A stretch of 64,000 nucleotides of DNA from Escherichia coli. Its GTDB lineage: Bacteria > Pseudomonadota > Gammaproteobacteria > Enterobacterales > Enterobacteriaceae. The position numbers and the translations under genes are program-made. Shown piece by piece: positions 34,200 through 46,132 of this stretch (the first letter of the stretch is position 1; each line of letters starts with the position of its first letter). The stretch lies in assembly GCF_044324785.1 (NCBI RefSeq), contig NZ_CP172127.1. One strand, given 5' to 3'. The notes beneath the pieces are model-generated. The model had not been told where the DNA came from. It made no database searches and worked only from the letters and a program-made list of their open reading frames with translations.

Positions 34200-34777
34200 G
34201 TGTTCCCCGCGCCAGCGGGGATAAACCGGGCGTTTCATGCTCATTGTTACCAACCCGCCAGTGTTCCCCGCGCCAGCGGGGATAAACCGCCGATGATCGG
34301 GCTCGGCATTTCGTCGAGGGGGTGTTCCCCGCGCCAGCGGGGATAAACCGGCTTGCAGCAGCTGCGCCAACGTCTGAATATGGTGTTCCCCGCGCCAGCG
34401 GGGATAAACCGATGGTGAGTGGTTGCATATGTGCCTGGCTATCGTGTTCCCCGCGCCAGCGGGGATAAACCGAGGCTATCTATCAGCCATTCTTCATCTA
34501 CTGAGTGTTCCCCGCGCCAGCGGGGATAAACCGGTCTGCTCGTGAGTCCGCGGCGCGAATTGCCGGTGTTCCCCGCGCCAGCGGGGATAAACCGCGAAGC
34601 TCCTTCCGTTGATTACCAAAATGTTGGTGTTCCCCGCGCCAGCGGGGATAAACCGACCGCCCGAACGGCAAAGGGGGCTTCTGGAAGGAGTTCCCCACGT
34701 CAGCGGGGATAAACCGGACACAGAGCGCCGCTATAGCGCCTATGCCAAGAGTTCCCCGCACCAGCGGGAATAAACCA
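34200..34777 (+). CRISPR. Type I-E CRISPR array, 10 repeats (29 bp, GTGTTCCCCGCGCCAGCGGGGATAAACCG), 9 spacers of 32 bp; last two repeats degenerate
   Basis: Repeats start at 34200, 34261, 34322, 34383, 34444, 34505, 34566, 34627, 34688 (gagttccccacgtcagc...), 34749 (gagttccccgcaccagcgggaataaacca); 61-bp periodicity read directly from the sequence. Confidence 0.97.
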
Positions 34778-35245
34778 CCATATAACCCGTTATCTCTTTC
34801 TCAAGTTTTTATATTAGCAGTACTCGTATTAAGCAACATATCCACGTAACACCTCATGTTCAAAATAGTTCTCCATGCCAGAGAAGTTCACAATTATCGA
34901 TACAAAAAATTAAATTTAATCAAAGTGTTATTTGTATGATTCTTAAATCGTTAAGAAATTTTAATCTATTGTTTTTTTAATATTGAATTAATGCCTGTTA
35001 ATTTTTTCTTTAGAATAACAGTGTATTTTTTAAGCTTGTTATTCATTGATTAAGTAATAAATCTGGAAGTTTGTCTTTGTTTTGAGGCTAATGAGTGGTT
35101 TTACATAACCGCCTCTATAGGCTGTTGATGAATAGTTCTTATGAATAAAGATATCCAGTTCATACTTTAAATGAAAATTGATAAAGTACGGTTTGCGTTG
35201 TCTTTTATTCTAAGGACATCGAGTGTAGTTAATATTCCTTGTAAC

Positions 35246-35370
35246 AACAGGGATAAACCGAACTAGTTAAAGTTTTTATTATGTTCCCTGCATCAGCGGG
35301 GATAAACCGGACTTGTTATCATTTTTTAAGTTGTCGAACTTATGTTCCCCGCGTCAGCGGGGATAACCAT
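35246..35370 (+). CRISPR. Degenerate CRISPR mini-array (one truncated and two mutated repeats, one 32-bp spacer)
   Basis: cagggataaaccg (35248-35260), tgttccctgcatcagcggggataaaccg (35282-35309), 32-bp spacer, atgttccccgcgtcagcggggataacca (35342-35369). Confidence 0.75.
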
Positions 35371-35415
35371 TCAGGTATGTTCAGGCCGGGCAGTTTCCCG
35401 CCCGGTCTTCCTCAC

Positions 35416-36894
35416 TTACGCATTCGACCAGCTCTGGATCGAATCCGCATTCCCCAATTCCCCATGCATCACTTCATACGATTTTTTCAGGATCACATCA
35501 GTGTGCTTGGTTAGGTCTTTGAAAATGCCTTTATTCATCGCGTCGTAGCGTTTGGCGTTGCTCTCAACAGGCATAAAGATATCTTTCACGCGAACCATTT
35601 TGTCGACAGCCGTTGCGTAATCCGGGTATAGCCCCAGACCTACCGCCGTATTAATCGCTGCCCCCAGGCTTGCACAACCATTAATGGCGTTACGGCGTGC
35701 CGGAAGGTTGAACACGTCGGCAAAAATCTGCATAAACAGATCGCTGTTCGAACCGCCGCCAGTAATGATCACATGCTTTGCAAAGTGATTCATTTCATTA
35801 CACATATTGTCGTAATTGTTCTTCAGCGTCAGCGCCACGCTTTCCAGTATCGAACGATATATCCATGCGTAATCCATGCTGGAATCAAAGCCGATCATAA
35901 TCCCGCGTTTGTACGGTTCCCACGGATTGGTCAGCCAGTCCAGCACCGTCATCAGACCATTACAGCCAGGCGGCACACAAGACGCTTTTTTGTTGAGCAA
36001 ATCTTCCGGTGAAAGATCCTGTGCTTTGGCATCCTGAATTAACGACTCGCCTAACATGTCGCGCAGCCAGCTCACTGTCCACATGCCTTTGCGGATACCG
36101 TAACCTTCATACAGCAATGTTTGCGGAATAGAAGACATAATCGGCCAGTACGCTACCGGATCTTTCGGCAGTGCTTTGCCGTTCATCATCAACGCGATGT
36201 AAGTGCCAAGAGAAATTACCGCAGTTTCATCATCCAGTAACCCGGCTCCCAGTGCTTCTACCGGTTTATCACTGGTGGTACAAACAACCGGCAGCCCAGC
36301 CGGGAAATGTGTCGCCAGCGCGGCTTGAGGAGTGATATGCCCAAGAACAGTGCCCGGCATTTGCACATCAAACAGCATATGACGGGGGATATTAAACTTA
36401 TCCATTACCGCAGCCTCTTCGCTCCATGCCCAGGTCTTATAATCCACCGGCCACTGACCAAAATAGTTGGCGATATTGTCTTTAAACTCGCCGGTTAAGC
36501 GATGCGTCAGATAACCCGAAAAAGAGGTGACATATGCCACGTCAGGATTCGTATGTTCGTAAGGGCGTGTAACGCGTGCATCCTGCCAGCTGATCAACGG
36601 TGCAGCTGGCGTGCCATCGGCTTTCAATAACGCACGGCAGCAACGGATGGATCCCAGACCAATACCGACAATATCGTCTTTATTCCCGGCAAACTGACTC
36701 ATCAAATCGTGACCGGCAAAACATAATGATGCCCATAAATCGTCGTCAGGATGTTCTGCAGTATCGGCATCTGGCGTGTGCATCGGCTGCAATAAACCTT
36801 TGCCTTCGCAAACCACGTTACCTTCCAGATCGTACATCACCACTTTTGTGCTCTGACTTCCACCATCAATCCCTATGATGTATTTCTTCGACAT
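35416..36894 (-). CDS. ygcE: FGGY-family carbohydrate kinase (substrate unknown)
   Basis: 492-aa ORF MSKKYIIGIDGGSQSTKVVMYDLEGNVVCEGKG...; FGGY kinase N-terminal motif. Confidence 0.85.
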   Translation of the reverse strand: MSKKYIIGIDGGSQSTKVVMYDLEGNVVCEGKGLLQPMHTPDADTAEHPDDDLWASLCFAGHDLMSQFAGNKDDIVGIGLGSIRCCRALLKADGTPAAPLISWQDARVTRPYEHTNPDVAYVTSFSGYLTHRLTGEFKDNIANYFGQWPVDYKTWAWSEEAAVMDKFNIPRHMLFDVQMPGTVLGHITPQAALATHFPAGLPVVCTTSDKPVEALGAGLLDDETAVISLGTYIALMMNGKALPKDPVAYWPIMSSIPQTLLYEGYGIRKGMWTVSWLRDMLGESLIQDAKAQDLSPEDLLNKKASCVPPGCNGLMTVLDWLTNPWEPYKRGIMIGFDSSMDYAWIYRSILESVALTLKNNYDNMCNEMNHFAKHVIITGGGSNSDLFMQIFADVFNLPARRNAINGCASLGAAINTAVGLGLYPDYATAVDKMVRVKDIFMPVESNAKRYDAMNKGIFKDLTKHTDVILKKSYEVMHGELGNADSIQSWSNA

Positions 36895-36920
36895 GATTTT
36901 TCTCCTGTAATTTTTCTGGC

Positions 36921-38198
36921 TTACTTGCTGTTAGCCGTTGCGGGGGTGCTATCAGCAGTACGAATTTTTTGGAACAGCAAAAAGGTAAAGACGATCACCA
37001 TGGCAAGCGCCGCCATGCCCATCAGCCACATATTGCGGTAGGCTTCTGCTGCGGGCAGGGTGTCTTGCCAGTGGCCGATAATTGGGTAAACGAAGACATC
37101 CGGCAGGAATCCAATCACCGAACAAATACCTACCGTGGTGCCCATAATGTAAGACGGTGTTCTTGCTTCGCCAGGGCAGGCCCAGTACAGCCCGCGTGAG
37201 GCGTAACAGGTGAATCCCAGCAGTAAAATCAGGCCAATCCCCATCGCGACCGATTGCGGGTTAGAGTTCGTGACGAGCAGGGCAGTTAACGCCAGCAGGC
37301 CGAGTACGGAAAGGATTTGGATCACGCGGGTAGGGGATTTCACTTTACTGTAGGTGGTAATAATGCCGCCAAGTGGGCCGCACAGCGCGCGGAAGATTTT
37401 GTTGATCACAATCCCCATGTAGCTCGCCGCCACCAGCGACATGCCGTACATTTCGGTCAGATAGTTGGTGGAGTAACTCAGAATGGCGTAGATGGTGAAG
37501 ACGCCAAAAATCACCATGCTGCAATACCAGGTGGTGCTGATACGCAAAACGGCCAGGATGTCGCTAAGCTGGAATGACTGTTTTTCTTCGTTATTGGCAC
37601 TGCGCAGGTTGTTGTTATCGCTAACAAAAAACCAGCACAGAATCCCCAACAAGATGTAAACCACACTGTAGATGATAATGACCGTTTTCAGGCTGGTGCT
37701 GTCATCCGGTGCAAAGCGAGAAAAGACCCACATGGTAAACACCGCCAGCGACATTACACCGACGCCGCGCAGCCCTTCCATCCAGCCCATAATTTTCCCT
37801 TGCTCACTATGATCGCCCAGCAATGAGGCGGCTTTAATCGACACCGACCACAGCATTAAAATCGTCGTTATCGCAAAGGCGATCTGAATACAGAGCATTA
37901 CCCACAGTGGTGGATATGTTGCCATTATCAGGCCCAGCAATCCGGTAATGATCATCGCGGAAGTAATCATTTTGCGGTGTGAAAATTTATCGGCAATAAC
38001 GCCGCTGGGGGCATAAAGAATAATAGCCGCAATACCAAAGGTACTCATTATTAAACCTATCTCGGTATTGCTGAATCCCATAAATTTCGCCATGGGAATT
38101 TGATAAATATAACGTAAATAAGCCAGGTCAAAACTAACGCCGCCGCTAAAACTAATTATCGCGAGGGTTATCCAACGGCGATATGAGTTGTGTTGCAT
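36921..38198 (-). CDS. yqcE: MFS transporter (substrate unknown)
   Basis: 425-aa polytopic ORF MQHNSYRRWITLAIISFSGGVSFDLAYLRYIYQIP... Confidence 0.85.
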   Translation of the reverse strand: MQHNSYRRWITLAIISFSGGVSFDLAYLRYIYQIPMAKFMGFSNTEIGLIMSTFGIAAIILYAPSGVIADKFSHRKMITSAMIITGLLGLIMATYPPLWVMLCIQIAFAITTILMLWSVSIKAASLLGDHSEQGKIMGWMEGLRGVGVMSLAVFTMWVFSRFAPDDSTSLKTVIIIYSVVYILLGILCWFFVSDNNNLRSANNEEKQSFQLSDILAVLRISTTWYCSMVIFGVFTIYAILSYSTNYLTEMYGMSLVAASYMGIVINKIFRALCGPLGGIITTYSKVKSPTRVIQILSVLGLLALTALLVTNSNPQSVAMGIGLILLLGFTCYASRGLYWACPGEARTPSYIMGTTVGICSVIGFLPDVFVYPIIGHWQDTLPAAEAYRNMWLMGMAALAMVIVFTFLLFQKIRTADSTPATANSK

Positions 38199-38516
38199 AT
38201 CGTATTCCCATTTGTAATAGACAAAAAAAAGAGAAAAGTAAGCCGCCCTTTCAGGTGGATTACTTTTCTCAGGTCTCTAGTAATTGCAATAAGAAATAAC
38301 ATGGAAAGCAGTGGTGTTGTGTGAGAGTAATCACGCTTCTGCTTTTTAAAATTATTTGACAATTCGAATATCACACTGTGATTACGATCACATTAGCGAT
38401 TATGCCCTTATGATAAAAATTATCTCCAGTTACCAGAGATAATGAGAAAGGTAACTTCCCTCTCGCGGGGGAAGTTACCTTTCTTTTTTTTTGCCTTACG
38501 GAAATTGGAGCTAACT

Positions 38517-39302
38517 ATGTCAATCGAATCTCTCAATGCGTTCTCAATGGATTTTTTCTCCCTGAAAGGTAAAACCGCTATTGTTACCGGCGGGAATAGC
38601 GGTTTAGGCCAGGCATTTGCCATGGCGCTGGCCAAAGCAGGCGCAAATATCTTTATTCCAAGCTTCGTTAAAGATAACGGCGAAACAAAGGAAATGATTG
38701 AAAAACAGGGTGTTGAAGTTGACTTTATGCAGGTGGATATCACCGCAAAAGGCGCGCCGCAGAAGATAATCGCCGCCTGTTGCGAACGTTTCGGTACCGT
38801 CGATATTCTGGTTAACAATGCCGGTATTTGTAAGCTGAATAAGGTGCTGGACTTCGGTCGTGCCGACTGGGATCCAATGATTGATGTGAACCTGACCGCC
38901 GCATTCGAGTTAAGCTATGAAGCTGCAAAAATTATGATCCCGCAGAAAAGCGGTAAAATCATTAATATCTGTTCATTATTCTCTTACTTAGGTGGACAAT
39001 GGTCACCTGCATATTCTGCCACTAAACATGCTCTTGCCGGATTCACCAAAGCTTATTGTGATGAACTAGGTCAATATAATATTCAGGTAAATGGTATTGC
39101 CCCTGGCTATTATGCAACAGATATTACGCTGGCGACACGCAGTAATCCAGAAACCAATCAGCGCGTTCTTGATCATATTCCGGCAAACCGTTGGGGCGAT
39201 ACTCAGGATTTAATGGGCGCAGCCGTATTCCTCGCAAGTCCGGCTTCAAATTATGTTAACGGGCATTTATTAGTGGTCGATGGCGGTTATTTAGTGCGCT
39301 AA
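38517..39302 (+). CDS. ygcW: Short-chain dehydrogenase/reductase (SDR)
   Basis: ORF 38442-39302; start placed at the ATG giving MSIESLNAFSMDFFSLKGKTAIVTGGNSGLGQAFA... (Rossmann TGGxSGxG motif), 261 aa. Confidence 0.85.
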   Translation: MSIESLNAFSMDFFSLKGKTAIVTGGNSGLGQAFAMALAKAGANIFIPSFVKDNGETKEMIEKQGVEVDFMQVDITAKGAPQKIIAACCERFGTVDILVNNAGICKLNKVLDFGRADWDPMIDVNLTAAFELSYEAAKIMIPQKSGKIINICSLFSYLGGQWSPAYSATKHALAGFTKAYCDELGQYNIQVNGIAPGYYATDITLATRSNPETNQRVLDHIPANRWGDTQDLMGAAVFLASPASNYVNGHLLVVDGGYLVR

Positions 39303-39371
39303 TCCATAACGGTGGTTTCTGTTTTCTCTTATTAATGATTATTCCATTTTTATTATCAGGAAGGAATTACT

Positions 39372-40826
39372 ATGTCTTTATCTCGCGCAGCGATAGTCGA
39401 CCAGCTAAAGGAAATTGTTGGTGCAGATCGCGTAATTACCGATGAAACAGTATTAAAGAAAAACAGTATTGACCGTTTTCGCAAATTTCCGGATATTCAT
39501 GGCATTTATACTTTGCCGATTCCGGCAGCGGTCGTAAAACTCGGTTCCACAGAACAAGTATCCCGTGTGCTGAATTTTATGAATGCGCACAAAATTAACG
39601 GTGTGCCGCGTACCGGTGCTTCCGCTACCGAAGGTGGGCTGGAAACCGTTGTGGAAAACTCGGTGGTGCTCGACGGCTCTGCCATGAATCAAATCATTAA
39701 TATTGATATTGAGAATATGCAGGCCACGGCGCAATGTGGTGTTCCGCTGGAAGTGCTGGAAAACGCGTTGCGTGAAAAAGGTTACACCACGGGGCATTCT
39801 CCGCAGTCAAAGCCGCTGGCGCAGATGGGCGGCCTGGTAGCAACCCGCAGTATTGGGCAGTTCTCCACACTCTACGGCGCAATCGAAGATATGGTCGTTG
39901 GTCTGGAAGCAGTATTGGCTGATGGCACCGTGACACGCATTAAAAACGTGCCACGTCGCGCGGCTGGCCCGGACATTCGTCACATCATCATCGGCAACGA
40001 AGGTGCATTGTGCTATATCACTGAAGTAACAGTGAAAATCTTTAAATTCACCCCAGAAAACAACCTCTTCTACGGCTATATCCTGGAAGACATGAAAACC
40101 GGCTTCAACATCCTGCGTGAAATCATGGTGGAAGGGTATCGTCCGTCGATCGCTCGTTTGTATGACGCCGAAGATGGCACCCAACACTTCACCCATTTTG
40201 CCGACGGAAAATGCGTGTTGATCTTTATGGCTGAAGGTAACCCTCGCATTGCGAAGGCGACGGGCGAAGGGATTGCGGAAATCGTAGCTCGCTACCCGCA
40301 ATGCCAGCGCGTGGACAGCAAGCTGATCGAAACCTGGTTTAACAACCTGAACTGGGGACCGGATAAAGTAGCTGCCGAACGTGTGCAGATCCTCAAAACC
40401 GGCAACATGGGCTTTACCACCGAAGTGTCCGGCTGCTGGAGCTGCATTCACGAAATCTACGAAAGCGTTATTAACCGTATTCGTACCGAGTTCCCGCACG
40501 CCGACGACATCACCATGCTGGGCGGTCACTCCTCTCATAGCTACCAGAACGGCACCAACATGTACTTCGTCTACGACTACAACGTCGTTGACTGTAAGCC
40601 GGAAGAGGAAATCGACAAGTACCACAATCCGCTCAACAAAATCATCTGCGAAGAAACCATTCGCCTCGGTGGTTCGATGGTGCACCACCACGGTATCGGT
40701 AAACATCGCGTTCACTGGAGCAAACTGGAACACGGCAGCGCGTGGGCGTTGCTGGAAGGGCTGAAAAAGCAGTTCGATCCTAACGGCATTATGAATACGG
40801 GTACTATCTATCCGATTGAAAAATAA
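39372..40826 (+). CDS. ygcU: FAD-linked oxidoreductase (FAD-binding PCMH type)
   Basis: 484-aa ORF MSLSRAAIVDQLKEIVGADRVITDETVLKKNSIDRFRKFP... Confidence 0.85.
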   Translation: MSLSRAAIVDQLKEIVGADRVITDETVLKKNSIDRFRKFPDIHGIYTLPIPAAVVKLGSTEQVSRVLNFMNAHKINGVPRTGASATEGGLETVVENSVVLDGSAMNQIINIDIENMQATAQCGVPLEVLENALREKGYTTGHSPQSKPLAQMGGLVATRSIGQFSTLYGAIEDMVVGLEAVLADGTVTRIKNVPRRAAGPDIRHIIIGNEGALCYITEVTVKIFKFTPENNLFYGYILEDMKTGFNILREIMVEGYRPSIARLYDAEDGTQHFTHFADGKCVLIFMAEGNPRIAKATGEGIAEIVARYPQCQRVDSKLIETWFNNLNWGPDKVAAERVQILKTGNMGFTTEVSGCWSCIHEIYESVINRIRTEFPHADDITMLGGHSSHSYQNGTNMYFVYDYNVVDCKPEEEIDKYHNPLNKIICEETIRLGGSMVHHHGIGKHRVHWSKLEHGSAWALLEGLKKQFDPNGIMNTGTIYPIEK

Positions 40827-40919
40827 TGTGTCAGGCAGCGTTCCACGATGACGGGGCGTTGCCATTTCGGCTTCTCAGGCGAGAAGCCGTTCTTATTACC
40901 GGACAATGAAGGGGTAAAG

Positions 40920-42257
40920 ATGAACACTTCACCGGTGCGAATGGATGATTTACCGCTTAACCGTTTTCACTGTCGAATTGCTGCGCTCACTTTCGGCGCG
41001 CACCTGACCGACGGTTATGTTCTCGGCGTCATTGGTTACGCCATTATTCAGCTTACACCCGCCATGCAACTGACGCCGTTTATGGCGGGAATGATTGGCG
41101 GCTCGGCGCTCCTTGGTTTGTTTCTTGGCAGCCTGGTTCTTGGATGGATCTCCGACCATATTGGTCGGCAAAAAATCTTCACCTTCAGCTTTTTGCTGAT
41201 TACGCTCGCTTCGTTCTTGCAATTTTTTGCCACCACGCCAGAGCATCTTATTGGGCTGCGCATTTTGATCGGCATTGGGCTGGGAGGCGATTACTCAGTC
41301 GGTCACACCTTGCTGGCTGAATTTTCCCCGCGCCGCCATCGCGGTGTTTTGCTGGGCGCATTCAGCGTGGTGTGGACCGTAGGCTATGTGTTGGCAAGTA
41401 TTGCCGGACATCACTTTATTAGCGAAAGCCCGGAGGCCTGGCGCTGGCTGCTGGCATCGGCAGCTCTGCCCGCGTTGTTGATTACGTTATTACGCTGGGG
41501 AACGCCAGAATCGCCACGCTGGCTACTGCGCCAGGGGCGTTTTGCAGAAGCTCACGCTATCGTGCATCGCTATTTTGGTCCCCATGTTTTACTGGGCGAT
41601 GAAGTGGCAACGGCGACCCATAAACACATCAAAACCTTGTTCTCTTCGCGCTACTGGCGGCGCACGGCGTTTAACAGCGTCTTCTTTGTCTGCCTCGTAA
41701 TCCCATGGTTTGTGATTTATACCTGGCTGCCAACTATCGCCCAAACTATTGGTCTGGAAGATGCGCTGACTGCCAGCCTGATGCTTAATGCGTTGTTAAT
41801 TGTGGGCGCGCTGCTGGGATTAGTTCTGACGCACCTGCTGGCACATCGCAAATTTTTGCTGGGAAGTTTTTTGCTGCTGGCGGCAACGCTGGTAGTAATG
41901 GCCTGTTTGCCTTCCGGCAGTTCATTAACGCTGCTGCTTTTTGTTCTCTTCAGCACCACCATTTCTGCAGTCAGTAATCTGGTGGGCATTTTGCCTGCGG
42001 AAAGTTTTCCTACTGACATTCGCTCGCTGGGCGTCGGTTTTGCCACCGCCATGAGTCGGTTGGGGGCGGCGGTAAGTACTGGCCTGCTGCCGTGGGTGCT
42101 GGCGCAGTGGGGAATGCAAGTCACCTTATTGCTCCTGGCGGCAGTGTTGTTGGTTGGTTTTGTCGTGACCTGGCTATGGGCACCAGAAACCAAAGCACTC
42201 CCGCTGGTGGCGGCGGGAAATGTAGGAGGTGCGAATGAACATTCTGTTAGCGTTTAA
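40920..42257 (+). CDS. ygcS: MFS transporter (substrate unknown)
   Basis: ORF 40848-42257; start placed at the ATG giving MNTSPVRMDDLPLNRFHCRIAALTFGAHLTDGY... (445 aa). Confidence 0.82.
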   Translation: MNTSPVRMDDLPLNRFHCRIAALTFGAHLTDGYVLGVIGYAIIQLTPAMQLTPFMAGMIGGSALLGLFLGSLVLGWISDHIGRQKIFTFSFLLITLASFLQFFATTPEHLIGLRILIGIGLGGDYSVGHTLLAEFSPRRHRGVLLGAFSVVWTVGYVLASIAGHHFISESPEAWRWLLASAALPALLITLLRWGTPESPRWLLRQGRFAEAHAIVHRYFGPHVLLGDEVATATHKHIKTLFSSRYWRRTAFNSVFFVCLVIPWFVIYTWLPTIAQTIGLEDALTASLMLNALLIVGALLGLVLTHLLAHRKFLLGSFLLLAATLVVMACLPSGSSLTLLLFVLFSTTISAVSNLVGILPAESFPTDIRSLGVGFATAMSRLGAAVSTGLLPWVLAQWGMQVTLLLLAAVLLVGFVVTWLWAPETKALPLVAAGNVGGANEHSVSV

Positions 42258-43014
42258 AGCCGAACCGGATGCCGGAATGCTGGCGGAAAAAGAGTGGCAG
42301 GCGGCGGTTCAGGGTAATAGCGGACCGGATGTTTCGCTTCTGCGAAGTTTACTCGGTGCTGATGAACAGGCTGCCGCCGCGCTGCTGTTGGCGCAGAGAA
42401 AAAACGGTACGTCGATGTCTTTAACCGCGTTGAGCATGGGGGATGAACGGGCGTTGCACTGGCTGCGCTATCTCATGGCTCTTGGGTTTGAGGAAGCTGT
42501 ATTGCTGGAGATGGCGGCAGATCTGCGCTTTGCGCCGGAATTTGTCGCTCGCCATATTGCCGAATGGCAGCGTCAGAATCCGCTGGATCTGATAATTACC
42601 GGCTGCCAAAGCAGCGAAGGGCAGAATGGGCAAACGCCATTTTTGCTGGCGGAAATGCTGGGCTGGCCCTGCTTCACCCAGGTGGAGCGTTTTACTCTCG
42701 ACGCGCCGTTTATCACCCTCGAACAGCGTACTGAAAACGGGCTGCGCTGTTGCCGGGTTCGCATGCCTGCGGTGATTGCCGTGCGTCAGTGCGGTGAAGT
42801 GGCCTTGCCAGTACCGGGAATGCGCCAGCGTATGGCGGCGGGGAAAGCAGAAATTATCCGTAAAACTGTTGCTGCCGAATCGCCAGCGATGCAGTGTCTG
42901 CAACTGGCAAGAGCAGAGCAACAACGCGGAGCGACGCTGATTGATGGGCAAACGGTAGCAGAAAAAGCGCAAAAGCTATGGCAGGACTATTTACGCCAAA
43001 GGATGCAGCCATGA
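42235..43014 (+). CDS. ygcR: Electron transfer flavoprotein beta-subunit-like protein (FixA-like)
   Basis: ORF 42229-43014, MNILLAFKAEPDAGMLAEKEWQAAVQ...; stop overlaps the ygcQ start (ATGA). Confidence 0.82.
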   Translation: MNILLAFKAEPDAGMLAEKEWQAAVQGNSGPDVSLLRSLLGADEQAAAALLLAQRKNGTSMSLTALSMGDERALHWLRYLMALGFEEAVLLEMAADLRFAPEFVARHIAEWQRQNPLDLIITGCQSSEGQNGQTPFLLAEMLGWPCFTQVERFTLDAPFITLEQRTENGLRCCRVRMPAVIAVRQCGEVALPVPGMRQRMAAGKAEIIRKTVAAESPAMQCLQLARAEQQRGATLIDGQTVAEKAQKLWQDYLRQRMQP

Positions 43015-43871
43015 ATATCGCAATTGTGACAATAAATCAGGAGAATGCCGCAATAGCGAGCTGGCTGGCAGAACAGGATTTCAGCGGTTGTACCCTGGCG
43101 CACTGGCAGATTGAACCTCAGCCCGTAGTGGCGGAACAGGTGCTGGATGCGCTGGTGGAACAGTGGCAGCGAACGCCTGCGGACGTTGTTCTCTTTCCGC
43201 CGGGAACGTTTGGTGATGAACTGTCGACACGGTTGGCCTGGCGATTACATGGTGCAAGCATCAGCCAGGTGACTTCGTTAGATATTTCAACCGGAAGCGT
43301 GCGCAAATACCACTGGGGAAATGCGCTAACGGCGACGCTGCAAACAGAAAAACGCCCGCTATGCCTTTCCCTTGCCCGCCAGACGGGAGCAGTGAAAAAC
43401 GCCACATTGCCCTCTGGTATGCAGCAACTGAACATTGTCCCCGGCGCGCTTCCCGACTGGCTGGTTAGCACAGAGGATCTGAAAAATGTTACCCGTGACC
43501 CATTAGCTGAGGCCAGACGGGTGCTGGTGGTGGGGCAGGGCGGAGAGGCAGATAACCAGGAAATCGCTATGCTGGCAGAAAAGCTGGGAGCCGAAGTGGG
43601 CTACAGTCGGGCACGAGTGATGAACGGTGGCGTTGATGCCGAAAAAGTGATTGGTATTTCCGGACATCTGCTGGCACCTGAGGTGTGTATTGTTGTTGGC
43701 GCTTCCGGCGCAGCAGCGTTAATGGCGGGCGTCCGCAATAGCAAGTTTGTGGTGGCGATTAATCATGACGCCAGCGCGGCGGTATTTTCACAGGCAGATG
43801 TTGGCGTGGTTGATGACTGGAAAGCGGTGCTGGAGGCACTGGTGACAACCATTCACGTAGATTGCCAATAA
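43011..43871 (+). CDS. ygcQ: Electron transfer flavoprotein alpha-subunit-like protein (FixB-like)
   Basis: ORF 42978-43871; start at the ATG giving MNIAIVTINQENAAIASWLAEQDFSG... (286 aa). Confidence 0.82.
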   Translation: MNIAIVTINQENAAIASWLAEQDFSGCTLAHWQIEPQPVVAEQVLDALVEQWQRTPADVVLFPPGTFGDELSTRLAWRLHGASISQVTSLDISTGSVRKYHWGNALTATLQTEKRPLCLSLARQTGAVKNATLPSGMQQLNIVPGALPDWLVSTEDLKNVTRDPLAEARRVLVVGQGGEADNQEIAMLAEKLGAEVGYSRARVMNGGVDAEKVIGISGHLLAPEVCIVVGASGAAALMAGVRNSKFVVAINHDASAAVFSQADVGVVDDWKAVLEALVTTIHVDCQ

Positions 43872-43915
43872 CGTGCTGCCGGATGATCCTGCCTACGGTT
43901 CTGGGCTGGGGACTT

Positions 43916-43954
43916 GTAAGCCTGATAAGACGCGTCAAGCGTCGTATCAGGCGC
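43916..43954. repeat. REP element
   Basis: gtaagcctgataagacgcgtcaagcgtcgtatcaggcgc palindromic unit between convergent ygcQ and ygcP. Confidence 0.7.
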
Positions 43955-44017
43955 TGAATGTCGGATGTGGCGTGCAGCCTACAAATCACACAAATTCAAC
44001 TCGTTACGAGTATCCCG

Positions 44018-44593
44018 TCAAAGCAATTTTTTCGCTAACGTCCAGACCCCGGTATTCGTGGTGGAAAGCGCCACGACACCCGCGTTAATCGCATTACGCG
44101 CATCTTCTTCATCGCACACCAGCCCGCCGGCAATCAGCGGTTGGCGGATTTTCTCCGTCACCCAGCCCAGAACTTTAGGCATACAGCCTGGCAGGATCTC
44201 AATACAATCCGGATTCGATTGCGCAACTTGCTTATCAATGTTGTGAAACGAAATCGAATCAACAATAAACAGGCGATGAATACAGAAAAAACCTTCCGCT
44301 CTTGCCGCTTTCAGCATCGATGCTTTCGTGCTGATAATGCCGTCCGCCTCGGTCACCAGTTTCAAAAACTGAATCACCACTTCTTTATTTGACGCGCCTT
44401 CCAGCAAATCAACATGAATAAAAGCATATTTTCCGGCATTTTTAATCTTTTTAACGATTTGACTAATGGTGCAGATATTGCCGTACAACACGGAAATAAA
44501 CTGGCATTCAGAGTCGATTGCCAGTTGCAGGCTGGCATTATCTTTAACGGCAGCAATCACCGGATTCTGGCGGAGCAGGTGTAAGAGGGGCAT
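44018..44593 (-). CDS. ygcP: GlpP-family putative antiterminator/regulatory protein
   Basis: 191-aa ORF MPLLHLLRQNPVIAAVKDNASLQLAIDSECQFISVLYGNIC... Confidence 0.8.
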   Translation of the reverse strand: MPLLHLLRQNPVIAAVKDNASLQLAIDSECQFISVLYGNICTISQIVKKIKNAGKYAFIHVDLLEGASNKEVVIQFLKLVTEADGIISTKASMLKAARAEGFFCIHRLFIVDSISFHNIDKQVAQSNPDCIEILPGCMPKVLGWVTEKIRQPLIAGGLVCDEEDARNAINAGVVALSTTNTGVWTLAKKLL

Positions 44594-44609
44594 AAATTAT
44601 CCTTATTAT

Positions 44610-44870
44610 TTATCCAAAACGGTAGGTGATGCCGAATCCGGAAGGCGGATAGCGCCACTGTTGTAGTGTTGATTCGTCGCACAGCAAACGGCAGGTGCCA
44701 CACTCCAGGCAGCCGTGATAATCAATGCGTAAGTCACCTTCCGGTGTGAGCGAAAAAAGACCTGCCGGACAGGCGTTAATTAATCGTTCTGCCATCTGAC
44801 GCTCAACGGAGTCAGCCGGAACAATGTGCGGCGCATCAGCAACGCGCCAGAGATTACGGGCTACAGACAT
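44610..44870 (-). CDS. ygcO: Ferredoxin-like protein (FixX-like)
   Basis: ORF 44610-44906; start at the ATG giving MSVARNLWRVADAPHIVPADSVERQ... (86 aa) with C-terminal CxxC...CxxxC cysteines. Confidence 0.78.
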   Translation of the reverse strand: MSVARNLWRVADAPHIVPADSVERQMAERLINACPAGLFSLTPEGDLRIDYHGCLECGTCRLLCDESTLQQWRYPPSGFGITYRFG

Positions 44871-46132
44871 CGCAGACTCCTGATAACATCGCCCGCCAGA
44901 TGCCACAGGCCGTGACGACGTAAATGACGCCAGAATAACTGGCGCAGCGGTGGAACAGGTTTATCACCCTGATCCCATAAATCGCGGGAAATATCCTGCA
45001 TTAACGCAGGCCACGCCCGATACCAGCCAGGGCGTTGCAAAAGCGCCGGAACATGCTGATAACGTTGTAGAACATCCCATAGCAGGCTGCGCTCGACGTT
45101 GTGATGATAAAGCGCAAACAGATTTTGCGGCTCGCGGTGCTGGCAGGCGCTTATCAGCGTTTGTGCCGCCGCCTGTGCGCCAGTCAGCGCCATATCCATG
45201 CCGCGCACGGAAATTCCGGTATTGACGCAACTGCGCAACGCATCGCCCAGCAGCAGCCAGCCGTTACCGGCGTATTGCACCGGCATACTGTGCAAGCCAC
45301 CTTCTGGCACCAGATGCGCACCATACTCCAGTGATTCCGTGTTTTTGATAAGCGGGCGCACTGCCGGATGCGTTTTAAAGCGAGCCAGCAGCTCGCTTGC
45401 CGGAACACGACTTTGCGTAAGGGAAGAGAGCGGGCAAACAATCCCTAACGAGAGCGTTTGTTGATTAGTATAAAGAAATGCGCCGCCGGGTAAGTCATCA
45501 CAGATTCCGCCGCTGAACAGCAACGCTGCGCCTTCGTTATTCTCCAGATGAAAACGTTCTTCAATAGCGGATGTTTCCAGCGCCAGCACTTCTTTGATCC
45601 CCAACGCCATCGCTTCGCCAGCAGGACGAGTCACTAACCCGTGACGCTCAGCCAGGACGCTGTTGGCACCTTCTGCCAGCACCACATAACGGGCGCGGAG
45701 AATATCGTCACCACAAATGACACCACACACCCTGCCGTTTTCTTCATACAGCGCATCCACCGTCGCACCAGGGATGCATTCGACACCTTCTTTTTCGGCT
45801 TCGGCAACCAGCCACGGATCGAACCGTGCACGTAATACACTCCAGGATTCACCGCCGGGCTGTAAGCTGGAAAACGTCGTTGCGCCATCCGGCGTTAACA
45901 GGGAAAGGCTTTCGTGAGTGATGCGTCGTTCAAGAGGCGCGGTCAGATGAAATTGTGGGAGGAGTTCCGCGAGCGCCTGGGTATATAAACGCCCGCCGGA
46001 AAGATTTTTGCTGCCGGGGATTTCAGCGCGTTCCAGTAACAAAACGGATAAACCCACTCGCGCGCAGCGTAACGCGCAAGCGGTGCCTGCAATACCGGCA
46101 CCAATAATAATAATGTCGCAGTCGTCTTCCAT
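44861..46132 (-). CDS. ygcN: FAD-dependent oxidoreductase (FixC-like ETF-quinone oxidoreductase type)
   Basis: ORF 44861-46162; start at the ATG giving MEDDCDIIIIGAGIAGTACALRCAR... (GxGxxG FAD motif), 423 aa. Confidence 0.82.
   Translation of the reverse strand: MEDDCDIIIIGAGIAGTACALRCARVGLSVLLLERAEIPGSKNLSGGRLYTQALAELLPQFHLTAPLERRITHESLSLLTPDGATTFSSLQPGGESWSVLRARFDPWLVAEAEKEGVECIPGATVDALYEENGRVCGVICGDDILRARYVVLAEGANSVLAERHGLVTRPAGEAMALGIKEVLALETSAIEERFHLENNEGAALLFSGGICDDLPGGAFLYTNQQTLSLGIVCPLSSLTQSRVPASELLARFKTHPAVRPLIKNTESLEYGAHLVPEGGLHSMPVQYAGNGWLLLGDALRSCVNTGISVRGMDMALTGAQAAAQTLISACQHREPQNLFALYHHNVERSLLWDVLQRYQHVPALLQRPGWYRAWPALMQDISRDLWDQGDKPVPPLRQLFWRHLRRHGLWHLAGDVIRSLRCL

Follow-up and report, generated by a model that had tools for sequence, protein, structure and literature searches.

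The ygc gene block of Escherichia coli: a conserved catabolic module with putative GlpP-type leader RNAs and an AGPS-like flavoenzyme

The glycerol (glp) regulon of Bacillus subtilis is built around an antiterminator protein of the PF04309 family (GlpP), a kinase producing the phosphorylated inducer, and a flavin dehydrogenase acting on the resulting phosphate ester, and each of its regulated operons opens with an intrinsic terminator in the 5′ untranslated region (5′ UTR). Together with glycerol-3-phosphate (G3P), GlpP disrupts these terminators (PMC9604022; PMC10573289). A block of ten consecutive genes in Escherichia coli, referred to here as the ygc block (ygcE, yqcE, ygcW, ygcU, ygcS, ygcR, ygcQ, ygcP, ygcO, and ygcN), has a similar composition. 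It was analyzed in a stretch of 64,000 nucleotides from contig NZ_CP172127.1 (‘the window’), where it occupies positions 35416–46132 with all ten open reading frames (ORFs) intact. The block is already known as an annotated, uncharacterized gene cluster. To this we add a conserved leader RNA, predicted to be of the GlpP type, with a putative dual CRP-site architecture; an active site in YgcU that, judged by its residues, is of the alkyl-dihydroxyacetone-phosphate synthase (AGPS) type; and comparative evidence, drawn from several phyla, for a substrate that is probably not an ordinary sugar but a glycerol-like onium or betaine compound. The role of ten neighboring genes in the best-studied bacterium, for which none has been known, thereby becomes experimentally testable.

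Compared with the glp regulon, catabolite control appears to be added in a parallel fashion, by CcpA in Bacillus and by CRP in the ygc block. The two systems differ in their enzymes and carriers: the ygc kinase resembles XylB and LsrK, not GlpK; the flavoenzyme YgcU resembles AGPS, not GlpD; a short-chain dehydrogenase/reductase (SDR) and an electron transfer flavoprotein (ETF) are present in addition; and the transporters are of other families. On balance, the block is probably a glp-like catabolic regulon for a compound other than glycerol.

AGPS (PDB 4bby, 2uuu) deprotonates C1 of a substituted dihydroxyacetone phosphate (DHAP), captures it at flavin N5, and swaps the substituent at C1; the enzyme requires oxidized flavin adenine dinucleotide (FAD) and brings about no net redox change (PMC3509576). 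YgcU has the VAO-type FAD fold in common with AGPS, together with a conserved Arg, a Tyr, and an HHH loop, and YgcW and YgcE could make a DHAP-type substrate for it. Unlike AGPS, YgcU lacks the AGPS-type N-terminal domain, is soluble, stands in a catabolic context, and is linked to an ETF, implying net electron flow, whereas AGPS is redox-neutral. The electron-transfer genes themselves recall FixABCX systems, including E. coli fixABCX (carnitine), and ydiQRST, all of which pair an ETF (beta and alpha subunits) with a flavoprotein resembling FixC and a ferredoxin resembling FixX; the ygc genes differ in being split into two units on opposite strands. As in LctBCD, a GlcD-family flavoenzyme is encoded beside its own ETF, but YgcU carries HHHG rather than the EHG motif of LctD, and E. 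coli has no LctD-like partner.

Leader RNAs, CRP-like sites, and the GlpP-type regulator

Both divergent operons of the block have an intrinsic terminator with a trailing T-run in the 5′ UTR. The ygcWUSRQ leader (38429–38492, plus strand) reads GTTAC-CAGAGA-taat-GAGAAAGGTAAC, followed by the terminator stem and nine T, and the yqcE-ygcE leader (38223–38284, minus strand) reads ATTAC-TAGAGA-cct-GAGAAAAGTAAT, followed by a terminator hairpin and eight T. Both are 62–64 nt long and are copies of the same element, scoring 70.9 bits (E = 7.5e-14) and 69.9 bits (E = 1.3e-13), respectively, against the covariance model R1. These are the only two true R1 copies in the 64-kb window; none precedes ygcN, ygcO, ygcP, or ygcS, and none lies elsewhere in it. 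A terminator scan located a 19-bp stem at 38444–38485 in the ygcW leader, the end of which is about 25 nt before the ygcW ATG. The longest ygcW ORF opens at 38442 and reads through this terminator; because the extension 38442–38516 covers the terminator, the true start of ygcW is placed at 38517. Naive ORF calling over that interval would mask the regulatory RNA of ygcW.

The pairing pattern of the leader is well conserved. The upstream RTTAC can pair with GTAAY inside the 5′ arm of the terminator to give an antiterminator helix that is 96% paired, with an outer pair that is G:C in 25 sequences and A:U in 14, the remaining three being misaligned rows. The outer terminator stem is 95% paired, with three pairs changed on both sides. 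Leaders of the same sequence and shape stand upstream of ygcW orthologues in Gammaproteobacteria, Clostridia, Bacilli, and Negativicutes. In a neighborhood survey for which 80 genome loci were fetched, their ORFs clustered, and co-occurrence counted over 83 loci, a relaxed pattern search turned up 100 leader copies, distributed over 60 of the 83 loci. All 100 precede operons of the cluster, namely those headed by W (53), yqcE (39), a BCCT carrier (4), U (3), or an ATP-binding cassette (ABC) permease (1). Leader and YgcP occur together in 53 loci and are both missing from 20; the three loci with YgcP alone carry variant leaders missed by the pattern, and the seven with a leader alone are mostly truncated contigs. 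Beyond the pattern set, R1 also matched Sporomusa and the actinomycete Saccharopolyspora. The motif spans at least three phyla and is absent from Rfam: the leaders match no family of Rfam 15, and the scan gave only weak matches, one to a naRNA4/REP-like element (REP, repetitive extragenic palindromic) and two to small nucleolar RNAs by chance.

Within E. coli, both leaders and both CRP-like sites are identical to those of K-12, while the synonymous divergence (dS) of the coding sequences is 0.06–0.18; in the 318-bp spacer between the operons, all seven differences from K-12 fall outside the leaders and CRP-like sites. A metagenome scan with the plain leader pattern gave 119 matches and no new member of the regulon. 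Eleven of these were marine and were rejected as chance matches, having R1 scores of ~25 bits and no terminator. The marine matches precede a conserved 182-residue ORF (L112, L115, L120, L123, L145, L152, L163, L170, L173, and L205), the R1 score of ~25 bits applying to the six marine contigs that scored; they belong to a marine phage family, and the ORF may encode a phage terminase small subunit.

The candidate ligand of these leaders is YgcP (44018–44593, minus strand; 191 residues), a GlpP-family antiterminator protein that matches Pfam G3P_antiterm (PF04309; E = 1.4e-62) across the full profile, as well as PDB entries 3kts (8.5e-28) and 1vkf (8e-15). It is ~30% identical to Listeria GlpP (a tblastn match), compared with 51–62% to its own orthologues across phyla. 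Canonical glp leaders were available for comparison from glpP-glpFK-glpD loci in large ‘plasmid’ collection records; four were used (glpF and glpD), from the two species Cytobacillus spongiae and Staphylococcus aureus. The PLSDB records concerned (NZ_CP030101.1, NZ_CP093325.1, CP051994.1, and others) look like mislabeled chromosomes or fragments, among them a Listeria record of 2.9 Mb, a Bacillus record of 5.5 Mb, and an S. aureus record of 683 kb with mutS, mutL, miaA, and hfq. The canonical glpF and glpD leaders consist of AAGTTAATA, a gap of 8–12 nt, and (A)GAGA-N3/4-GAGA, the second GAGA opening the terminator stem, and the ygc leaders read AGTTAC-Y-AGAGA-N3/4-GAGAAAAGTAAC. The element (A)GAGA-N3/4-GAGA is thus found at the foot of the terminator in all four canonical leaders and in all ygc leaders, and a GTTA(A/C) box lies near the 5′ end in both groups. 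The shared (A)GAGA-N3/4-GAGA points to a probable protein-binding box common to glp and ygc leaders. What distinguishes the ygc leaders is that the GTTAC box directly adjoins the AGAGA box and has its pairing partner, GTAAC, in the terminator arm.

Each leader is preceded by a CRP-like site. The site of the ygcW promoter (38377–38392) is TGTGATTACGATCACA, with both half-sites matched perfectly; it is the sole TGTGA-N6-TCACA in the window, where 0.07 would be expected by chance. The site of the yqcE promoter (38320–38335) reads CGTGATTACTCTCACA on the minus strand. Among Enterobacterales, a CRP-like site is present on the ygcW side in 42 of 43 loci, its center 43–45 nt upstream of the leader, and on the yqcE side in 37 of 38, its center 42–44 nt upstream of the first conserved base of the leader. 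If these are class II sites centered at −41.5, transcription would start 2–3 nt before that base. Both yqcE and ygcW were among the top CRP predictions of PhyloScan (PMC1794230).

Judging from these sequence features, it is likely that promoters with dual CRP sites are combined with YgcP-dependent antitermination at the shared leaders, and we infer from the co-occurrence of YgcP and leader, and from the shared box, that YgcP contacts the leader. Two back-to-back promoters, each with a CRP-like site, would drive ygcWUSRQ and yqcE-ygcE, and the default fold of each leader would be a strong intrinsic terminator. YgcP, produced from a separate ygcNOP unit, would bind the AGAGA-N3/4-GAGA box at the terminator foot together with a phosphorylated pathway intermediate and stabilize the RTTAC/GTAAY helix, allowing RNA polymerase to read through. 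The precedent would be Bacillus GlpP, which with G3P opens the glpD, glpFK, and glpTQ leaders; the effector of YgcP is probably a phosphate ester other than G3P, in which the ygc system would presumably differ from glp. The initial annotation of this DNA had made its reading of the block depend on co-regulation of the genes. Seven of the ten (ygcWUSRQ and yqcE-ygcE) have the same leader and the same CRP-site geometry, in agreement with that expectation; ygcNOP has no such leader. Protein-mediated antitermination of the GlpP type is known from Bacilli, and we found no description of it from E. coli in the literature; the scheme would place it there, and the two leaders could be used as biosensors for the inducer.

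YgcU and the other enzymes of the block

YgcU resembles AGPS: ygcU (39372–40826, plus strand) encodes a flavoenzyme of 484 residues with a VAO-type FAD_binding_4 domain and an FAD-oxidase_C fold. AGPS is its top PDB match in the sequence comparison (E = 7.6e-56 with the family profile) and again in the fold comparison, where AGPS entries take ranks 1–31. YgcU R262 aligns with guinea-pig AGPS R419 (checked on the R419H mutant entry 4bc7), Y398 with Y578 (checked on the Y578F mutant entry 4bca), and H438–440 with H615–617 of the HHHG motif; all of these YgcU residues are invariant across 12 orthologues. R447 of Dictyostelium AGPS could not be aligned. The C-terminal motif separates the two branches of the superfamily: YgcU and AGPS have HHHG, compared with GEHGIG in LctD, AEHGIG in 3pm9, and GEHGLG in c15, an LctD-like oxidase of anaerobic clusters. 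In the E-H-G motif, the Glu serves as a metal ligand. The next-best PDB matches to YgcU are glycolate oxidase, LctD, and LDHD. The initial annotation had filed YgcU as a generic ‘FAD-linked oxidase’, which proved too general, the AGPS catalytic residues arguing for chemistry on a substituted DHAP rather than simple alcohol oxidation. Filing it as AGPS would also be wrong, as it is without the ~200-residue N-terminal part of AGPS that serves lipid binding and fatty-alcohol access (484 versus 658 residues, with the alignment beginning at about AGPS residue 180). The AlphaFold model of YgcU, built from a 12-sequence alignment, has a pLDDT (predicted local distance difference test) of 65, low in the FAD loops, and was used for the fold ranking only. 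Published observations are that ygcU is induced 1.69-fold by D-serine and that its deletion has no phenotype.

YgcW and YgcE: ygcW (38517–39302, plus strand) encodes an SDR dehydrogenase of 261 residues similar to KduD and gluconate-5-dehydrogenase, scoring 350.8 bits against a KduD cut-off of 369. The kinase gene ygcE (35416–36894, minus strand; 492 residues) is the second gene of the yqcE-ygcE operon. Its product has Pfam FGGY_N and FGGY_C domains, with LsrK 5ya0 as the nearest PDB entry (E = 4e-30), and its best NCBIfam models are XylB (142.9 bits against a cut-off of 380) and LsrK (139.8 against 528). XylB acts on keto-sugars and LsrK on a diketone.

The electron-transfer proteins: YgcR (42235–43014, plus strand; 259 residues) is an ETF beta-like subunit with a Pfam ETF domain, and YgcQ (43011–43871, plus strand; 286 residues) is an ETF alpha-like subunit with ETF_alpha and ETF domains. 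Their Pfam matches are above the cut-offs, and all NCBIfam ETF models are far below theirs; together with the 27–38% identity to the ETFs of Firmicutes clusters, this marks them as very divergent from other ETFs. YgcN (44861–46132, minus strand; 423 residues) is a FixC-like ETF:quinone oxidoreductase with the Pfam domain ETFQO_UQ-bd, matching FixC of PDB 7koe_C over its full length (E = 1.6e-55), and YgcO (44610–44870, minus strand; 86 residues) is a FixX-like ferredoxin (NCBIfam FixX, E = 6.9e-24). A ‘YgcO’ that appears in a review of the nitrogen phosphotransferase system (PTS-Ntr) is a misprint for YcgO and was disregarded.

Pfam and NCBIfam together confirmed the families that had been named for all ten consecutive genes. 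No block protein reaches an NCBIfam equivalog cut-off, so none has an assigned specificity. The proposal that the genes work together as a single catabolic unit also held up; the unit comprises uptake, an FGGY kinase, a flavoenzyme, an ETF of its own with a quinone reductase resembling FixC/FixX, and a regulator resembling GlpP.

Conservation, substrate class, and rival readings

The block belongs to the core genome of E. coli and is under strong purifying selection. It is present in 5417 of 5426 complete E. coli genomes, and in 5060 of 5426 at least 80% of its length is retained. Strain N3 has the E. coli genome nearest to the window (99.0% identity), and its RefSeq annotation agrees with the ORFs used here; identity to MG1655 is 97.1%, and to almost all other complete genomes 95–99%. 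Against K-12, all ten genes are free of stop codons and frameshifts, and the ratio of nonsynonymous to synonymous substitution (dN/dS) is 0.009 for ygcU, 0.018 for ygcW, 0.029 for ygcP, 0.048 for ygcE, ~0.09 for both transporters, and 0.13–0.33 for the ETF and quinone-reductase genes. The highest value, 0.33 for ygcR, is much above those of the rest of the block (0.009–0.17). The earlier terms ‘island’ and ‘cryptic’ therefore overstate the case, the block being core genome under selection and not strain-specific.

Beyond E. coli, the same site between queE and queD holds the block in Klebsiella, Citrobacter, Enterobacter, Pluralibacter, Yokenella, Cedecea, and others. In the surveyed loci with YgcU, YgcW is found in 78 of 83, YgcE in 71, ETF alpha (ygcQ) in 63, ETF beta (ygcR) in 60, YgcP in 56, YqcE in 48, YgcS in 43, and YgcN in 37. 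The core of W, E, and U, usually with P and R/Q, occurs in Gammaproteobacteria and Bacillota, and Actinomycetota carry W-U-E; the ygc genes are a real, strongly conserved catabolic module in at least three bacterial phyla. Where present, yqcE always adjoins ygcE and stands behind a leader copy, and ygcN adjoins ygcU only in Enterobacterales, to which the N/O pair is confined. The first distant matches to YgcU, from Firmicutes, Desulfobacterota, and Vibrionaceae, are 71–73% identical. Between E. coli and Firmicutes, identity is 66–73% for YgcU, 64–80% for YgcW, 52–58% for YgcE, and 51–62% for YgcP. This range of 51–80% for the W/U/E/P proteins, set against 27–38% for the ETF subunits, suggests a core chemistry and an effector common to all these lineages, with an exchangeable electron sink. 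In anaerobes, the LctD-like second oxidase c15 lies behind the ETF genes (L004, 13187–16591; L063; L068), and several anaerobic clusters have a second ETF pair, of which the alpha subunit in L004 gives only a faint Fer4_7 match; this arrangement of second oxidase and ETF resembles the electron-bifurcating LctBCD complex.

Carriers and substrate class: the E. coli carriers belong to the major facilitator superfamily (MFS). YqcE (36921–38198, minus strand; 425 residues) is an MFS_1 transporter resembling the anion:cation-symporter (galactonate-type) group, and YgcS (40848–42257, plus strand; 469 residues) is a sugar-porter-type transporter that matches the sugar-porter family (1.5e-52) and the organic-cation transporter model TIGR00898 (9.6e-40). 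YgcS is a NiaP homologue, and its overexpression raises the yield of nicotinamide mononucleotide from nicotinamide (PMC8601175). Loci outside Enterobacterales have a BCCT carrier (Pfam E = 8e-116) or an OpuA-type ABC system as their transporter, and MttB-family methyltransferases and corrinoid proteins are frequent neighbors; BCCT, OpuAC, MttB, and the corrinoid protein were confirmed by Pfam at these loci. In L075 (6997–14027), a leader copy stands directly before an operon of MttB, a PanB-like protein, an OpuA-type ABC system, and a proline-racemase-like protein, which would extend the YgcP regulon. The same type of operon adjoins the cluster in L071 (10004–16605); both loci come from soda-lake Bacillota. 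Alkalihalobacillus has a co-directional array of an AspA-like lyase, a betaine aldehyde dehydrogenase (BADH)-like enzyme, an alcohol dehydrogenase, BCCT, W, E, and U, and Pantoea-type loci add a succinate-semialdehyde dehydrogenase (SSADH)-like enzyme, an aldo-keto reductase, and a homologue of the formaldehyde-activating enzyme (Fae). The Saccharopolyspora flanks hold only a zinc alcohol dehydrogenase and an alpha/beta hydrolase and are not decisive.

The BCCT/OpuA carriers under the same leader, the MttB enzymes, the likeness of YqcE to anion:cation symporters, and the organic-cation match of YgcS point to the onium/betaine class; tentatively, the substrate would be a glycerol-like (vicinal diol) moiety bearing a quaternary-ammonium or betaine-type group. 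The likely substrate class is thereby narrowed from ‘some sugar’ to glycerol-like onium/betaine compounds. The initial annotation, which had proposed a sugar or polyol and held that the substrate could not be deduced from sequence, was too pessimistic about the class and right about the exact identity, and its ‘sugar or polyol’ is doubtful, as other phyla serve the same, very highly conserved W/E/U/P core with betaine carriers beside MttB methyltransferases. Several specific compounds were set aside: carnitine, choline, and glycerophosphocholine give the FGGY kinase no role; 2,3-dihydroxypropane-1-sulfonate (DHPS) is an anion that the carriers do not fit; and polyols of the erythritol type would require isomerases, which do not travel with the core.

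Proposed pathway: the order YgcW, YgcE, YgcU, with the last acting on a phospho-keto intermediate, is drawn by analogy, and we hold it to be about evenly balanced. In E. coli, YqcE, YgcS, or both would take up the substrate; in other phyla, this would fall to betaine carriers of the BCCT or OpuA type. YgcW would oxidize a secondary alcohol and YgcE would phosphorylate the neighboring primary alcohol, giving a C1-substituted DHAP that would likely also be the YgcP effector. YgcU would then break the C1 bond by AGPS-type flavin chemistry, with the Tyr as base, a flavin-N5 carbanion adduct, and the Arg and HHH holding the substrate, and the products would be the released substituent and a triose phosphate entering glycolysis. 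As the ETF genes stand directly behind ygcU wherever they are present (ygcS intervenes between ygcU and ygcR only in Enterobacterales), the YgcU reaction probably ends in reduced flavin, for example by oxidative cleavage. The reduced flavin would pass its electrons to YgcR/YgcQ and, in Enterobacterales, on to quinone via YgcN/YgcO. Alternatively, the ETF may merely keep the flavin oxidized in anaerobes, which fits its absence from aerobic lineages. If true, AGPS-like cleavage of a substituted DHAP by YgcU, whether or not electrons pass to the ETF, would put a rare flavin mechanism to a new use in catabolism.

A more specific form of this scheme, in which YgcW, YgcE, and YgcU make up an unrecognized pathway that cleaves glyceryl ethers or glyceryl-onium compounds by reversed AGPS chemistry, is unlikely as it stands. 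Here a 1-substituted glycerol would undergo oxidation at C2 and phosphorylation to become a substituted DHAP, from which YgcU would eject the substituent to leave a triose phosphate. A speculative example of its substrate is glyceryl-trimethylhomoserine, the deacylated head group of diacylglyceryl-trimethylhomoserine (DGTS), a lipid of algae, fungi, and phosphate-starved bacteria. As further speculation, the accessory genes of other phyla would suit a pathway that sets free a hydroxy-betaine, for example homoserine betaine, the head group in DGTS. Under reversed AGPS chemistry, the alcohol dehydrogenase, the BADH/SSADH-like aldehyde dehydrogenase, and the AspA-like lyase would dispose of homoserine betaine, yielding fumarate and trimethylamine, with MttB-type demethylases and PanB-like or Fae-like C1 handling also contributing to its disposal; the E. 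coli module would harvest only the C3 unit. A possible link follows between gut and marine bacteria and the turnover of betaine-type osmolytes or lipid head groups, with trimethylamine formation.

A number of points weigh against the glp-like scheme and its onium/betaine substrate. The comparison with canonical leaders covers four leaders from two species, and R1 scores them at 14–15 bits. The antiterminator helix is only 5 bp long, and its covariation comes from few independent lineages. With ygcNOP lacking a leader, nothing in the leaders ties these three of the ten genes to the regulation of the rest. The tightly linked ETF is not accounted for by redox-neutral AGPS chemistry, and ETF genes are missing beside YgcU in Halobacillus, Virgibacillus, Pantoea, and SAR324 (aerobic or facultative), where YgcU is equally conserved, and likewise from Erwinia loci. 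The YgcU model is mediocre and unfit for pocket analysis. E. coli uses MFS transporters, not betaine carriers, and its substrate could differ from that of other phyla. The literature search, on the gene names, FGGY with BCCT, GlpP-like/PF04309 proteins, homoserine betaine, and AGPS residues, found no paper characterizing the ygc pathway and no experiment tying YgcP to the leader or any compound to the pathway.

The most serious competitor is a substrate without charge, an ordinary sugar or polyol that would enter through the MFS carriers, receive its phosphate from YgcE, and be oxidized by YgcW and YgcU with electrons passing to the ETF. An FGGY kinase with an SDR is the classic pairing of polyol and pentulose catabolism, CRP control is typical of sugar operons, and the sugar-porter match of YgcS, the closeness of YgcW to KduD and gluconate-5-dehydrogenase, and that of YgcE to xylulokinase and LsrK all agree with it. 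We nevertheless find it doubtful: every transporter that is not an MFS protein is a betaine carrier of the BCCT or OpuA type, controlled by the same leader, with MttB nearby; across the loci surveyed, the core has no conserved isomerase, aldolase, or epimerase to feed a sugar phosphate into central metabolism; and YgcU has the catalytic residues of AGPS, not those of a sugar or alcohol oxidase. The same active site bears on the idea that YgcU and YgcR/YgcQ form a D-2-hydroxy-acid:ETF dehydrogenase of the LctBCD or D-2-hydroxyglutarate type, acting on lactate, glycolate, or similar acids, with the kinase and SDR in a side reaction. Membership of YgcU in the GlcD/LctD superfamily, its next-best PDB matches, and the ETF genes that follow it speak for this, but its HHHG is that of AGPS and not the EHG of LctD, 3pm9, and c15; in anaerobes, c15 already fills the role as a separate oxidase; and W, E, and P are linked to U as tightly as the ETF and are better conserved. 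Such a dehydrogenase is highly improbable.

A true biosynthetic alkyl-DHAP synthase making ether lipids would explain why AGPS is the best match by sequence and fold and why its catalytic residues are conserved. It is nevertheless the least credible of the alternatives, to be entertained hardly at all, given the missing N-terminal part, the catabolic context of CRP sites, uptake carriers, kinase, and inducible antiterminator, and the lack of any linked enzyme forming acyl-DHAP or reductase forming fatty alcohol. Finally, the block could be a silent evolutionary leftover in E. coli, its sequence kept and unused as the natural substrate is not met. Neither a phenotype nor an inducer has been reported, most of the block has been lost from ~6.6% of complete genomes, and the strong terminators of its two leaders would hold it silent in the laboratory. 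Set against this are the dN/dS values of 0.009–0.09 for U, W, P, E, and the two transporters, the lack of stops and frameshifts, the identity of leaders and CRP-like sites across strains that differ by 3%, and the retention of at least 80% of the block in 5060 of 5426 genomes, which make disuse distinctly improbable. The preferred reading remains a glp-like regulon for a compound other than glycerol.

Genomic setting

The left flank of the block consists of queE and an array of clustered regularly interspaced short palindromic repeats (CRISPR), and the right flank of queD-cysJIH. With queE on one side and queD on the other, the block splits two queuosine genes. It had been described as wedged between the queuosine and CRISPR genes; the CRISPR array lies on the queE side, and queuosine genes lie on both. 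The array itself (34200–34783, between queE and ygcE) has ten repeats with a 61-nt period. Two degenerate CRISPR repeats at 35281–35376, immediately ahead of the ygcE stop codon, appear to be what is left of a longer array or of a second one. In the gap between ygcQ and ygcP, a weak match to Rfam naRNA4 (REP-like) was noted at 43919–44001 on the minus strand, at 29.5 bits against a gathering threshold of 59.5.

Where most of the block is gone, as in ~6.6% of complete E. coli genomes, what remains are stubs of ygcE or ygcN; DX6, for example, keeps 5% of the block and 21EVA 1%. One E. coli strain has IS1397 inserted inside the block, and the annotations of Shigella flexneri and S. boydii include truncated variants of YgcP.

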